DNA of 4,807 bases, from IMG/VR virus record IMGVR_UViG_2690316347_000013. One strand, 5' to 3'. Shown in pieces: positions 1 through 4,807 of the stretch. Both the position numbers and the translations under genes were made by a program. This stretch comes from a virus. Lineage: Duplodnaviria > Heunggongvirae > Uroviricota > Caudoviricetes. The notes beneath the pieces were generated by a model. It was not told where the DNA came from and did no database searches. It worked only from the letters and a program-made list of their open reading frames with translations. The stretch's first letter is position 1, and every line of letters starts with the position of its first letter.

Positions 1-36
1 TGAAGTGGCACACTGAATTTGGCCACCTGAACAGAG
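1..36. repeat. IS911 left terminal inverted repeat (IRL)
   Basis: TGAAGTGGCACACTGAATTTGGCCACCTGAACAGAG pairs with the reverse complement of 1214-1249 (TGAAGTGGTCAACAAAAACTGGCCACCGAGTTAGAG). The first 8 bases and the GGCCACC block are identical. Confidence 0.8.
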
Positions 37-72
37 GTGATATGCTCACCTCAGAACAACACAGGTGCTCCA

Positions 73-1249
<1,177 letters not shown>

Positions 1250-1264
1250 GAAGCAGTTTTTACG

Positions 1265-1819
1265 TCAAAAAGCAATAACTTTTTTCTCTATACCAAAAGC
1301 CATAACCATTGGTTTGTACAAAATAAATTCTGCCACCTTTAGCCAATGCTCAATGCGTCTTTCACAGGTTCTTAAACTCCATTTCGGGTGTGCATCATTC
1401 AGCAGTTCAGCCATTTTGCGTTTGGTCATCCCCCGCCCCTCATACCGTTGCCGAAGGACGCTAATCAATCCTGGATGCTCTGCCAGCACCTCACTTATGA
1501 CCCGATCAATACATAACGCCTCTGCATCAGTACAATGCGCCAGCCAGCTCTTTTGCTTACCGTTAATCATATCCCGCAAAAAAGCCTCAAGTTCAGACTT
1601 GTTCAGACCTGCTTTTTTCATCCTCCGGAGCGCCTCGTTAATTGCCGTTTTTGTCAGCTTTTTAGAGGTCAACATCAGGTTAAACATATTCCCCGTCTTA
1701 CCGCCACCAATATACGACCAGCGCCCCCACATACGTAGTTTTCCCTGAATCCAGACACTTTCCAGCGTGGTGAGACGAAGGTGTTCTCCGCTTTTTCCTG
1801 TATTCGTTGGGTAAATCAT
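1265..1819 (-). CDS. Phage late-gene antiterminator Q-like protein (184 aa)
   Basis: ATG at 1819 overlaps the upstream gene stop as ATGA, with AGGAGG 7 nt upstream. Protein starts MIYPTNTGKSGEHL... and contains an MWGRWSY motif and a C-terminal GMTKRKMAELL...RRIEHWLKVAEFIL region that resemble 82/21-type Q proteins as I remember them. Its position directly after a YbcO-like gene is typical for Q. The track ORF start at 1939 is rejected because it overlaps the upstream gene. Confidence 0.6.
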   Translation of the reverse strand: MIYPTNTGKSGEHLRLTTLESVWIQGKLRMWGRWSYIGGGKTGNMFNLMLTSKKLTKTAINEALRRMKKAGLNKSELEAFLRDMINGKQKSWLAHCTDAEALCIDRVISEVLAEHPGLISVLRQRYEGRGMTKRKMAELLNDAHPKWSLRTCERRIEHWLKVAEFILYKPMVMAFGIEKKVIAF

Positions 1820-2106
1820 AAATATCCCTCCTTTCTCCAGATTTCTTGTGTGCGAAAAACACCTTCTGCATGCATCAGGCGTAATTCTTCTTTGGTGTAA
1901 TCGCTGGTTTTTACCCGCCCGTCGATTAAATCGTGGCACGAGCTACAGGCAATCGCTGCCTGCATATCGTGTGGCTTTATCGCTGTTCCGCACGTTCCCG
2001 CCAGTCGGTAATGCGCCAGCACAGACGTTTCCGGATCGTGATTGCAGTAGCCAGGAATTCTGACGGTGCACATCTGCCCCCGCGCCGCTTTACGTAAATC
2101 CACCAT
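1816..2106 (-). CDS. ybcO: YbcO-like DUF1364 putative nuclease (96 aa)
   Basis: MVDLRKAARGQMCTVRIPGYCNHDPETSVLAH...CSSCHDLIDGR closely resembles DLP12 YbcO (same length, Cys/His-rich). Its start overlaps the upstream stop as TAATG at 2104-2108. Confidence 0.75.
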   Translation of the reverse strand: MVDLRKAARGQMCTVRIPGYCNHDPETSVLAHYRLAGTCGTAIKPHDMQAAIACSSCHDLIDGRVKTSDYTKEELRLMHAEGVFRTQEIWRKEGYL

Positions 2107-2705
2107 TACGCAAACTCCAGCAGCTGCGCGGCCACATTTTCGACTTGTTCCGGAGAGGAAAATTTACGGAACAGAATCCAGTTCCACAGCACATTCAGAA
2201 CAGATTTATAAACCTGCTGAAACTCGGTTTCGTCCATATTCGCAAACGCGATAGATTTCGCCCGACACCCACGGCTACCGTCCGGATAAAAATGCTCGGT
2301 GTAAAATCCGGCCTGAATGGCTACCCACTCGCGGAAAGCCTCAAACGACTTTAGCAATGCCGTATCACTGGTTCTGCGTGTCGCAACTGTATTCAGATAT
2401 TGCTCTGCGGCTTCGCTCAGAGCTGGCGTATGTTCCCGGCCTACTGATTCACACAGGTAATCAACGAAACCGGACACCAGTTTTCGTTCGCGAGGCGTGA
2501 TCGCCCCACCGACCGGAGTCCAGTAATCGAAACCCAGTTGCAGGAGTTTGAAAAAACGCTTGTGGAATGCGTAGTTACACACACGCTTAAAGTCTGCGTG
2601 TATCCACTCACCTATTTTGATTTGATGCAGAAAATCGCAACTCTCCGGCGTCGCCGGGAGAAGTAATCCGGAAGAGGTTTGTTTGACCAGTTGTATATGT
2701 GCCAT
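2106..2705 (-). CDS. DUF1367-family phage protein (199 aa)
   Basis: ATG at 2705 with GGAGA 6 nt upstream gives MAHIQLVKQTSSGLLLPATPES...FHKRFFKLLQLGFDYW, the motif pattern I associate with DUF1367 proteins of enterobacterial prophage nin regions. The TTG at 2747 used by the ORF track has no ribosome-binding site. Confidence 0.65.
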   Translation of the reverse strand: MAHIQLVKQTSSGLLLPATPESCDFLHQIKIGEWIHADFKRVCNYAFHKRFFKLLQLGFDYWTPVGGAITPRERKLVSGFVDYLCESVGREHTPALSEAAEQYLNTVATRRTSDTALLKSFEAFREWVAIQAGFYTEHFYPDGSRGCRAKSIAFANMDETEFQQVYKSVLNVLWNWILFRKFSSPEQVENVAAQLLEFA

Positions 2706-3150: not shown

Positions 3151-3203
3151 AATAAACAACAAAAAACCCGCCGAAACGCTGAGAGATCACAGCGATGGGC
3201 GGG
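3151..3203 (-). terminator. Rho-independent terminator at the 3' end of the hok mRNA
   Basis: Minus-strand hairpin CCCGCC...GGCGGG (3203-3167, with inner CGCTG/CAGCG pairing) is followed by TTTTTTGTTGTTTATT (3166-3151). Confidence 0.65.
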
Positions 3204-3211
3204 TTAAGTGC

Positions 3212-3224
3212 GGGTGCGTTGAGG
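3212..3224 (-). other. hok mRNA 3' fold-back-inhibition (fbi) element
   Basis: Minus-strand CCUCAACGCACCC is complementary, with one bulged C, to the predicted mRNA 5' end GGGUGCUUGAGG (3606-3595). This reproduces the 5'-3' pairing known for hok mRNAs. Confidence 0.6.
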
Positions 3225-3280
3225 ATGCCTGACACATCAGAGGTGGGCGGGGATGGGATCAGCTCCCCGCCCGGTCACTC

Positions 3281-3436
3281 TTACTTCCTGGATTCGTAGT
3301 CTACGAAGACAGCGACCTCCGTCTGGCCGGTTCGGATTCGTACCTCACAGAGGTCTTTCCTCGTTACCAGTGCCGTCACTATGACGGTTAAACAGATGAC
3401 GATCAGGGCGATTAACATCGCCTTTTGCTGCTTCAT
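3281..3436 (-). CDS. hok: Hok-family type I toxin (51 aa), HokD/Gef-like
   Basis: MKQQKAMLIALIVICLTVIVTALVTRKDLCEVRIRTGQTEVAVFVDYESRK is close to HokD/HokC as I recall them. AAGGAG lies 9 nt upstream of the ATG at 3436. Confidence 0.9.
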   Translation of the reverse strand: MKQQKAMLIALIVICLTVIVTALVTRKDLCEVRIRTGQTEVAVFVDYESRK

Positions 3437-3493
3437 AGCCTGCTTCTCCTTGCCTTTCGGCATGTAAGAGGCTAACCTACATGTGCAAAGCAT
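3281..3493 (-). CDS. mok: Mok, an in-frame N-terminally extended reading frame overlapping hok (70 aa)
   Basis: ATG at 3493 with GAGG 8 nt upstream. The N-terminus MLCTCRLASYMPKGKEKQA resembles MokC (MLNTCRVPL...KEKRA) as I recall it, and the frame is shared with hok. Confidence 0.65.
   Translation of the reverse strand: MLCTCRLASYMPKGKEKQAMKQQKAMLIALIVICLTVIVTALVTRKDLCEVRIRTGQTEVAVFVDYESRK
3450..3478 (+). promoter_or_regulatory. sok promoter (TTGCCT-17-TAACCT)
   Basis: The plus-strand sequence cTTGCCTttcggcatgtaagaggcTAACCT aligns position for position with the plasmid R1 sok promoter region as I recall it (cTTGCGCaaagcgcggtaagaggcTATCCT). Confidence 0.55.
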
Positions 3494-3558
3494 GAAATTG
3501 GCCTCAGATTAATGTTAAGCGTCTTGCCGGACGCGTAATGTTAACTGGGGCTTTTCTC
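3485..3558 (+). ncRNA. sok: Sok antisense RNA (antitoxin), about 70 nt
   Basis: The predicted start, about 7 nt after the -10 box, lies antisense to the mok start codon and ribosome-binding site (3491-3505). A stem-loop GTTAAGCGTC/GACGC..TTAAC at 3514-3545 is followed by the T-rich CTTTTCTC. Ends are approximate. Confidence 0.5.
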
Positions 3559-3612
3559 TATCTGCCTTTTGGTGTTCATGCCTGAAGCAGATAGCCTCAA
3601 GCACCCGCAGTC

Positions 3613-3642
3613 ATTCTACTTACCTCGCCAATATGAAATCAA
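3613..3642 (-). promoter_or_regulatory. Candidate hok/mok mRNA promoter (TTGATT-18-TAGAAT)
   Basis: Minus-strand TTGATT (3642-3637) and TAGAAT (3618-3613). The predicted start near 3606 coincides with the conserved GGGUGCUUGAGGCU mRNA 5' end, which is followed by an 8-bp stem (3594-3587 with 3565-3558). Confidence 0.5.
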
Positions 3643-3663
3643 TCAGAAAGGTGCCCCATAAAA

Positions 3664-4350
3664 TCACTCCTTCTCTTCTTTACCGTAGTGGAGTTGACCA
3701 ATTTTGATAAGAGGGCGTCCCTGAGATTTGCGGTGTAGATTGGTATCGCGCAGAGAATACACACAGCCACAATATTCCTGCTGATAGAATTTTTCGCGCT
3801 TGCTGATTTCAATCATACGGGACGAGCCGCCCTGCTTGCGCCAGTTATAATCCCAGTACACCATGCCCGGATAATGCGCGACGGCTCGCCGCCCACAGTC
3901 GTTAACCTGCTGCATATTTTTCCAGCGTGAAATGCCCAGTGAACTGCTGATCACACTGAAACCATTTTCAGCGGCGTACAGCGCTGTCCGCTCAAAACGC
4001 ATGTCAAAACACATGGTGCAACGGATCCCTCGTTCGGGCTCCCATTCCATTCCTTTGGCTCGTTCAAACCAGTTGTCTGTGTCGTAATCAGCATCAATAA
4101 ACGGCACGCCGTGTTGTTCAGCAAAGCGAATATTCTCATCCTTACGAATTAAATACTCTTTCTGAGGATGAATGTTCGGGTTGTAGAAAAAGATGGTGTA
4201 GTCGATTCCCGAGGCCTGAAGCGCCTCCATCACCTCACCGGAACATGGAGCACAGCAAGAGTGCAGTAGTAGTTTGTTTGCCCCGTTTGGGAGCTCCAAT
4301 TTGGGCCGTTTGAAATCAGCAACTGTCATAAATATGTTTATTGGGGTCAT
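3664..4350 (-). CDS. queH: QueH-like epoxyqueuosine reductase (DUF208 family), 228 aa
   Basis: Family hallmarks are visible: [37 protein letters not shown] and FYQQEYCGC. Start is ambiguous between ATG 4350 and ATG 4329; neither has a clear Shine-Dalgarno sequence. Confidence 0.75.
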
Positions 4351-4497
4351 AAAAATATCAAAGAGTGTAGCATTAGAACGGGGCTATCGGAAACAGATGT
4401 GTGACTGCTCCCCGCCCTTTCGGGTGGTCTCCTGATGATTTGAGGGTGCAGAAATCCCTCCGGTTAAGGATTAAATTTTTAACAGTGCTAAATTTAA

Positions 4498-4656
4498 TTA
4501 TTCAGTTCTGGATTTTGTCGCCCTGCGTATCCGCGCTTTCGCGTTACGCTCAATCTGTATCAGCTTTTCTATATTTCTCCGCCTTTCCTGTTCCTCCTGG
4601 CGCAATAGCCTTACATCATCTGCCAGTCTGGTTTCTCTTTTTGCCACAGAGAGCAT
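4498..4656 (-). CDS. Doubtful small basic ORF (52 aa), possibly a gene remnant
   Basis: ATG at 4656 to TAA at 4498-4500, MLSVAKRETRLADDVRLLRQEEQERRRNIEK.... There is no convincing ribosome-binding site and rare Arg/Ile codons are abundant. The frame stays open upstream to 4743 (…RCKICGAVVEPFDW) but without a usable start codon. Confidence 0.15.
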   Translation of the reverse strand: MLSVAKRETRLADDVRLLRQEEQERRRNIEKLIQIERNAKARIRRATKSRTE

Positions 4657-4743
4657 CCAGTCAAACGGCTCCACAACCGCACCGCAGATTTTACAGCGGA
4701 CCTGACGCTCTTTTTCGTCAACCCGTACTGAGGTAGCCTGAGT

Positions 4744-4772
4744 TTAACGGACACTCCTTCCTGAAATAGAAT
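4744..4772 (+). promoter_or_regulatory. Possible promoter for the plus-strand gene at 4793 (weak -35, TAGAAT -10)
   Basis: TAGAAT at 4767-4772 with TTAACG/TTTAAC about 17 bp upstream, correctly placed ahead of the ribosome-binding site at 4781. Confidence 0.25.
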
Positions 4773-4792
4773 GGCATCAGAAGGAGCTAATA

Positions 4793-4807
4793 ATGAGCAG
4801 AAAAACC
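4793..4807 (+). CDS. 5' end of an unidentified plus-strand gene (MSRKT...), truncated by the window
   Basis: AAGGAG at 4781-4786 lies 6 nt before ATG 4793. Only 5 codons are visible. Confidence 0.35.

Follow-up and report, generated by a model that had tools for sequence, protein, structure and literature searches.

A queH gene carried beside hok/sok on lambdoid prophages of Escherichia coli

Introduction

Why would a temperate phage carry the last enzyme of queuosine (Q) synthesis into a host that already has one? The question is raised by a 4,807-nt stretch of Caudoviricetes DNA (IMG/VR record IMGVR_UViG_2690316347_000013), referred to here as the window, in which an earlier note made from the sequence alone had pointed to a minus-strand open reading frame (ORF) as a QueH-type epoxyqueuosine reductase. 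We find the ORF to be an intact, well-conserved member of the QueH/DUF208 family, the coding sequence of which is under purifying selection on prophages of Escherichia coli. In our judgement it is likely to encode a functional, self-expressed, cobalamin-independent epoxyqueuosine reductase that acts on host tRNA, and to have been recruited from an Enterobacteriaceae chromosome.

E. coli lacks de novo synthesis of the corrin ring, and tgt and queA belong to its core genes. The QueH family was reportedly defined by Zallot et al. in 2017 (ACS Chem Biol 12:844). QueH and QueG (YjeS) share the same predicted reaction and substrate, the conversion of epoxyqueuosine (oQ) to Q at position 34 of tRNA (oQ34-tRNA to Q34-tRNA), but QueG has an unrelated fold and relies on cobalamin and [4Fe-4S] cofactors. 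According to PMC4646009, which cites Frey et al. 1988, E. coli was shown to require cobalamin for the last reaction of Q synthesis, and QueG is one of four cobamide-dependent enzymes of this organism (PMC11841063).

Results

The ORF encodes an intact QueH-family protein

The ORF runs through 228 uninterrupted codons on the minus strand at positions 3664-4350. Its translation contains every element of the motif set on which the QueH/DUF208 proposal had been founded, namely an 11-residue CCAPC-bearing motif at residues 27-37, FFYNPNIHP at 54-62, RCTMCF at 110-115 and YCGC at 193-196. Congruent with this, the profile search suggested in the earlier note returned Pfam PF02677 (QueH) over essentially its full length, with residues 27-201 aligned to positions 1-174 of the 175 in the profile, at a score of 220.6 bits (curated cut-off 23.5) and an E-value of 1.9e-65; none of the NCBIfam models matched the protein. 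The structurally characterized QueH of Thermotoga maritima (PDB 7lc5) was picked up from the protein by sequence alone, at an E-value of 5e-22. An AlphaFold2 model generated from a 49-sequence alignment reached a mean predicted local distance difference test score (pLDDT) of 94.6 and a predicted template modelling score (pTM) of 0.90, and its comparison with 7lc5 using Foldseek yielded an E-value of 3.5e-14, a target-normalised template modelling (TM) score of 0.92 and a root-mean-square deviation of 1.2 Å across 179 columns. The runner-up fold matches, TtuA-type [4Fe-4S] tRNA thiolases with an E-value of 1e-5, are nine orders of magnitude weaker.

The alignment of cysteines and metal-binding residues, likewise proposed in the earlier note, gave a result in the same direction, as all seven family-invariant cysteines are kept and no other family was assigned. 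Across the 49-sequence alignment, which extends down to 35% identity, there is no variation at C32, C33, C36, C111, C114, C194 and C196, nor at N59, E65, R69, E106, R110, R118, K144 and Q191; the same seven cysteines are kept across 65 representatives of clusters formed at 50% identity. Cys36 aligns with Asp13 in T. maritima (CCAPC versus CCAPD), a difference that does not represent a loss of the motif, because Cys is the family consensus, being present in 58 of the 65 representatives. With the ligand residues in place, the protein is predicted to bind a [4Fe-4S] cluster and an adjacent iron. A conserved C-terminal tail of about 25 residues is absent from T. maritima QueH. At the nucleotide level the ORF is 100% identical to the gene that the Prokaryotic Genome Annotation Pipeline (PGAP) calls 'QueH' (WP_012421537.1). 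A foreign base composition was considered and ruled out: GC content (0.486) and GC content at third codon positions (0.541) resemble those of the neighbouring genes.

The coding sequence is under purifying selection

All 80 full-length prophage copies recovered from IMG/VR and from genome loci are intact, and they resolve into 18 nucleotide alleles encoding 6 protein alleles. Variation is concentrated at third codon positions, which account for 30 of the 34 variable sites, and the pairwise ratio of nonsynonymous to synonymous polymorphism (pN/pS) is 0.035-0.049, falling to 0.012 when the first ten codons are left out. Linkage to hok/sok cannot yield such a pattern, and thus the queH coding sequence itself is under purifying selection.

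Start codon and a candidate promoter

Translation most probably starts at the second ATG, at 4329 (Met8), which gives a protein of 221 residues. This is because chromosomal homologues start where this ATG aligns and lack one at the upstream position, because PGAP annotates 221 residues, and because three of the four amino-acid polymorphisms of the prophage copies sit in codons 1-10. Prophages that differ in arrangement can be aligned from about 50 bp 5' of the ATG at 4350 onwards, which corresponds to about 70 bp 5' of the ATG at 4329.

Within this shared upstream segment lies TGCTACACT, an extended -10-like element. The corresponding motif, TGCTA[C/A]A[C/A]T, is found 33-35 nt before the queH start in the prophage, on a Klebsiella IncF plasmid and at Citrobacter-like and Enterobacter-like chromosomal loci, with the spacer between motif and start diverged in all four kinds of locus; it has a single match in the whole window, where 0.14 would be expected by chance. 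Judged from this conservation, TGCTACACT is probably the native queH promoter, captured together with the gene. A promoter of its own would explain how queH could still be transcribed in the window, where IS600 severs it from the phage early operon. A riboswitch or structured leader 5' of queH was also considered and rejected, as an Rfam scan of the window at gathering thresholds returned sok only and the folding of 4300-4500 (minus strand) was unremarkable (z = -1.8).

A mosaic module in a variable prophage slot

A hok/sok type I toxin-antitoxin locus, comprising a toxin ORF and the sok/leader RNA, is present directly downstream of queH. It had been placed there in the earlier note, and the HOK_GEF and Rfam sok matches locate it at that site (Table 1). 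The toxin also matches the NCBIfam Hok subfamily model at 54 bits, under its 73-bit cut-off, and a mok-like frame of 70 codons (3281-3493, minus strand) overlaps the hok coding sequence (CDS). A promoter-like TTGATT-18-TAGAAT arrangement for hok occupies 3642-3613 on the minus strand, 22 nt past the queH stop codon. After the hok stop codon, a GC-rich stem-loop, GGGCGGGGA...TCCCCGCCC at 3240-3280 (minus strand), resembles the 3' fold-back element of hok mRNAs.

The queH DNA occurs in 995 of 5426 complete E. coli genomes, at 1014 chromosomal and 3 plasmid places and mostly at 95-99% identity, and PGAP labels these copies 'epoxyqueuosine reductase QueH' (about 18% of the complete genomes). A further 188 stretches of IMG/VR match the gene. 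In E. coli FDAARGOS_944 and E. coli 042, queH resides in lambdoid prophages between replication genes (ydaU/ydaV, DUF977) and hokD, and the isolated temperate phage HannyBb carries it at the equivalent place (locus L002, 8001-8687), labelled hypothetical. The description of the gene as prophage cargo therefore holds, with the lambdoid setting confirmed both in these relatives and in the window. The HannyBb annotation calls a second small ORF that overlaps the 5' end of queH. In PHROGs the family is phrog_3217, 'unknown function', with a profile that begins at Met41 and omits the CCAPC motif.

Comparison of 84 loci revealed that queH and the sok/hok region occur together in nearly all of them, with both flanks variable. 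A related prophage (L173) shares the frame of DUF977 followed by hokD-DUF1367-DUF1364-DUF1133, and holds other genes instead of queH: its slot, at 9014-11589, contains DUF4406, an ead/Ea22-like gene, DUF7167 and two hypothetical genes. The variable flanks and the exchanged slot content of L173 together identify queH-hok/sok as a mosaic module that occupies a slot of changing cargo.

Plasmids constitute a further habitat. Klebsiella accounts for about 99 of the 302 plasmid records that match queH, and nearly all of its listed matches are full length. On one Klebsiella IncF plasmid (L089, 7010-7678) a full-length queH lies 1.2 kb downstream of IncFII repA. Most of the E. coli plasmid matches are fragments. 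Many of these plasmids keep only residues 114-172, with an identity of about 61%, and the fragment often recurs near 2.3 kb in the record, which looks like a decayed queH copy at one shared locus. On another Klebsiella plasmid, pKp2177_2 (L090, 1-10140), queH is flanked on one side by a set resembling a cyclic-oligonucleotide-based antiphage signalling system (CBASS; DncV-like cyclase, E1-like ThiF and JAB) together with a NACHT protein, and on the other by a dGTP triphosphohydrolase. Such a neighbourhood is defence-island-like, and the region upstream of queH there is almost identical to that of a Citrobacter/Klebsiella-like chromosomal locus (L091).

Relation to chromosomal QueH and to host QueG

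The record 'MULTISPECIES: QueH [Enterobacteriaceae]' is found on at least 1000 contigs, and QueH proteins 79-91% identical to that of the window are named for Erwinia, Photorhabdus, Providencia, Proteus, Pantoea, Rahnella, Ewingella, Dickeya, Citrobacter koseri, Klebsiella oxytoca, Enterobacter spp. and Escherichia albertii. In Providencia the gene adjoins tmcA, purC and bamC, and ordinary chromosomal neighbours likewise surround it in Photorhabdus and on Citrobacter/Klebsiella-like and Enterobacter-like contigs; the relatives with such chromosomal neighbourhoods are 83-91% identical to the ORF protein. In a neighbour-joining tree, the prophage QueH falls inside the Enterobacteriaceae clade (C. 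koseri 91%, K. oxytoca 91%, Enterobacter 89-90%, E. albertii 89%), with the Klebsiella IncF plasmid copy (93%) as its sister. Taken together, the tree placement and the plasmid copies indicate that queH was recruited locally and that, inside a single family, chromosomes, plasmids and phages exchange it.

A check for queG in the host, also put forward in the earlier note, had a clear outcome: the gene is present in 5426 of 5426 complete E. coli genomes, and thus QueG is core where QueH is accessory (995 of 5426). The accompanying claim that enterobacteria normally use QueG instead is right for E. coli and does not extend to the order, as chromosomal QueH is found in several genera. Genus-level evidence, which need not apply to single genomes, places QueG in Photorhabdus, Pantoea, Rahnella, Morganella, Serratia and Citrobacter as well. 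Since QueH is chromosomal in several genera, some of which have QueG, a second, B12-independent reductase is common rather than exotic.

Partner genes, substrate and codon usage

As the earlier note had observed, no other queuosine or deazaguanine gene is visible in the window, and the same is true of the annotation of the 40.7-kb stretch containing an intact queH-bearing relative, prophage L001. More specifically, tgt, dpdA, queA and queC/D/E are annotated neither there nor in an 18.7-kb stretch of the E. coli 042 prophage or a 16.7-kb stretch of HannyBb, and no transglycosylase of the DpdA/TGT family or preQ0 synthesis gene is found in the annotation of these three stretches. The queH-bearing prophages do contain 2-4 tRNA genes between the Q-like gene and the lysis genes (L001, 17102-17412; L088, 6203-6356), for Gly(UCC), Thr(UGU), Arg(UCU) and a Met/Ile tRNA with a CAU anticodon (CAT, annotated Ile). 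None of the prophage tRNAs has a GUN anticodon, and the window is without tRNA genes, which rules out phage-encoded substrate tRNAs for QueH. With neither pathway partners nor a GUN tRNA on the prophages examined, the sole available substrate is host oQ-tRNA.

The fraction of NAU codons is 0.55 in the prophage, versus 0.65 in six flanking host genes, a small sample, and the share of NAY codons is 0.149. PADLOC gave no match for QueH or its neighbours. A link to the anticodon nuclease colicin E5 was dropped, given that E5 cleaves Q-less tRNA equally (PMC1635277).

The window is a prophage remnant between two insertion sequences

Prophage DNA in the window extends only from 1250 to about 4730 (about 3.5 kb) and is 99.8% identical to the prophage of E. 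coli FDAARGOS_944. Along the direction of transcription it comprises the truncated phrog_1621 gene, queH, hok/sok, orf95, the DUF1367 (NinB-like) gene, YbcO and the DUF1133 (Q-like) gene, followed by IS911 (Table 1). The nin-type genes are accordingly located downstream of hok and not upstream of queH, so that the position 'between nin-region genes and hok' given in the earlier note has to be corrected. IS911 borders the prophage DNA 15 bp past the stop codon of the Q-like gene, with homology to L001 restarting at 1250, and it takes the site that in intact relatives is held by tRNA genes and the lysis cassette; at the other end, homology to L001 stops at 4733. The window is thus a prophage remnant, the late region and early operon of which have been cut away by IS911 and IS600, which leaves transcription of queH to its own or to insertion sequence (IS)-derived promoters. 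The exact IS911-remnant-IS600 arrangement was found in none of the complete E. coli genomes of the collection, and the abundance of IS elements points to a Shigella-like source.

Table 1. Features of the 4,807-nt window, in order of position, with the evidence for each.
Feature	Position	Strand	Evidence
IS911 (IS3 family), complete	1..1249	+	99.8% over 1249 nt to annotated IS911 in L173; Pfam HTH_Tnp_1 and rve on its two ORFs
DUF1133 gene, Q-like late antiterminator	1265..1819	-	Pfam DUF1133 3.8e-107, Phage_antitermQ; PHROG 753 'anti-termination protein Q-like'; PGAP coordinates from L001
YbcO/DUF1364 putative nuclease gene	1816..2106	-	Pfam YbcO 7.7e-45; PHROG 131 HNH endonuclease
DUF1367 (NinB/Orf-like) gene	2106..2705	-	Pfam DUF1367 3.3e-95; PHROG 319 NinB/Orf recombination mediator
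orf95, small phage ORF, 95 residues	2744..3031	-	PHROG 340 unknown function, 6e-20; hypothetical in L001
hokD-type Hok toxin CDS, 51 residues	3281..3436	-	Pfam HOK_GEF 9.8e-23; PGAP 'HokD' in L001
hok mRNA leader and sok antisense region	3431..3606	-	Rfam RF01794 sok 117 bits (gathering 59), E-value 4e-27
queH CDS, 221 residues plus stop	3664..4329	-	Pfam QueH, 7lc5, PGAP; 228-residue version reaches 4350
TGCTACACT, extended -10-like element, putative queH promoter	4364..4372	-	34 nt upstream of ATG 4329
phrog_1621 gene, 3' part, truncated by IS600	4498..4733	-	Intact gene at L001 20835-21191, 118 residues; about 40 N-terminal codons lost
IS600 left end, leaving the window	4729..4807	+	100% over 79 nt to start of annotated IS600 in L173

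Discussion

The data can be assembled into the following scheme. The queH gene would have been taken from an Enterobacteriaceae chromosome along with its extended -10 type promoter, and would now circulate with hok/sok as a compact module of lambdoid prophages, lodged in the variable slot that separates their replication genes from the nin/Q region, with a sister copy on Klebsiella IncF plasmids. Its product, predicted from 83-91% identity to chromosomal QueH to convert oQ to Q, would as an Fe-S, cobalamin-independent enzyme turn oQ34 into Q34 in host tRNA-Asp, -Asn, -His and -Tyr. Nothing further would be required from the phage, with host Tgt and QueA providing the oQ-tRNA. Because QueG depends on a cofactor, cobalamin, that E. 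coli cannot build de novo, a carried QueH may let the lysogen complete its Q-tRNA in the absence of B12; its expression in lysogens and any fitness benefit are presumed here.

Several observations weigh against this scheme. The host already has QueG, and deletion of queG was without effect on growth in one assay (PMC11841063), which leaves the benefit of Q over oQ unclear. The pN/pS signal could in part be older than capture by the phage. No peculiarity of NAU/NAC usage is seen in the prophage, where late and early genes are alike, and for that reason the codon-usage test is uninformative. The promoter call is based on a 9-nt motif and its conservation; a generic sigma-70 scan gave no site on the minus strand upstream of queH, a generic terminator scan found no terminator-like site in 3200-4807, and no Shine-Dalgarno sequence is visible ahead of the ATG at 4350 or that at 4329. 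To our knowledge, no physiological difference between oQ and Q has been established.

Some of these points would suit a queH that, active or inactive, gives no advantage and persists simply by being locked to the hok/sok post-segregational killing module in a frequently recombining prophage slot. The two are together in nearly all loci, queG is always present in the host and dispensable for growth in the assay cited above, the prophage around queH is decaying in the window, and the fragments that are all E. coli IncF plasmids hold of queH attest that decay does happen. A neutral passenger of this kind is nevertheless unlikely, as hok/sok linkage cannot stop point mutations, and yet pN/pS is 0.01-0.05, none of the 80 full-length copies is disrupted and the catalytic residues are invariant. 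Furthermore, queH is full length on Klebsiella plasmids, in two contexts of which no hok is seen. Alternatively, QueH could be made mainly at induction, by read-through from the early-right operon, and tune the decoding of NAU/NAC codons in late genes. The gene is indeed co-oriented with the replication genes and the Q gene within the delayed-early region, no terminator separates it from the upstream genes in the generic scan, and an isolated, presumably viable temperate phage carries it. We consider such a role in the phage cycle quite unlikely all the same: the NAU fraction and NAY share are unremarkable, with late genes equal to early ones, a lytic cycle leaves little time for tRNA turnover, plasmid copies go through no such cycle, and queH stays intact in IS-severed remnants such as the window, where early read-through is impossible.

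The last alternative is that the enzyme was repurposed in phage-host conflict, either acting on 7-deazaguanine or an epoxide in DNA, or changing the modification of tRNA position 34 in a way that lets a defence or toxin directed at tRNA be escaped or, conversely, sets it off; the first of these echoes a suggestion in the earlier note that the enzyme might work on 7-deazaguanine-containing nucleic acid. Q-tRNAs are targets of colicin E5, queH is borne by the mobilome of hosts that have QueG, and on one Klebsiella plasmid it lies between CBASS/NACHT genes and a dGTPase. That association with a defence island is however a single case, colicin E5 cuts Q-free tRNA just as well and thus does not recognise Q status (PMC1635277), and PADLOC returned no match. 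Moreover, dpdA, tgt, queA and queC/D/E are missing from the prophage, and the protein is about 90% identical to chromosomal Enterobacteriaceae QueH, with no lineage-specific substitutions at conserved sites. Repurposing is therefore very improbable, and the suggestion of the earlier note is not upheld; a functional reductase for host tRNA remains the reading that we prefer.

Cobalamin may become scarce for E. coli through loss of the B12 receptor BtuB or through competition for B12 in the gut. On this basis one can imagine, tentatively and with considerable doubt, that mobile QueH on prophages and Klebsiella plasmids is a selected trait of B12 independence or of conflict, which would keep tRNA position 34 as Q rather than oQ under cobalamin scarcity and thereby alter translation or susceptibility to tRNA-directed attack.

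How does the locus compare with known systems? It resembles T. maritima QueH (7LC5) in the full-length profile match, the fold and the cysteine set CCxPC, RCxxC and CGC, and differs from it by carriage on lambdoid prophages, linkage to hok/sok and a host with QueG. Among lambdoid prophages, bor and lom of lambda exemplify moron or lysogenic-conversion cargo. Like such morons, queH is one accessory gene that occupies a variable slot, is missing from otherwise similar prophages and has a plausible promoter of its own; unlike them, it has no flanking terminator that we could find, and it encodes not a surface or virulence factor but a tRNA-modification enzyme of the housekeeping type. MetH and MetE form a B12-dependent and -independent pair of isozymes in enterobacteria. 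QueG and QueH are alike in being two unrelated enzymes for one reaction, one of which requires cobalamin, with the distinction that in E. coli the B12-independent QueH is supplied by mobile elements and not by the chromosomal core. Phage clusters that combine DpdA with FolE/QueD/QueE/QueC make preQ0-type bases and insert them in DNA (Hutinet et al. 2019, PMC6884629). These 7-deazaguanine DNA-modification clusters are likewise phage-borne queuosine-pathway genes, but they contain a transglycosylase, whereas the prophages described here hold only the last, tRNA-specific step and no transglycosylase. In the same survey of viral deazaguanine genes, no QueA, QueG or QueH homologues were reported for the viruses analysed (PMC6884629), and our literature search found no paper on QueH as phage or plasmid cargo. 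The identity of QueH is already in public annotation through PGAP, and neither the enzyme, the pathway nor the kind of element is new; it is the carrier that has received little attention.

In practical terms, phage annotation can be corrected, with regard both to phrog_3217, with its 'unknown function' label and its profile beginning at an internal Met, and to the 'hypothetical' gene of HannyBb. If the selected trait outlined above were real, the last step of queuosine synthesis would be a lysogenic-conversion function, and a first physiological difference between oQ and Q would come into view. Should the enzyme prove active, about one fifth of sequenced E. coli would have, beside the B12-dependent core enzyme, a second route to Q-tRNA that is mobile and cobalamin-independent, and many Klebsiella plasmids would carry this route too. 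Such an activity would also offer a natural genetic system for differences between oQ and Q in vivo, and add tRNA-modification enzymes to the list of temperate-phage cargo.

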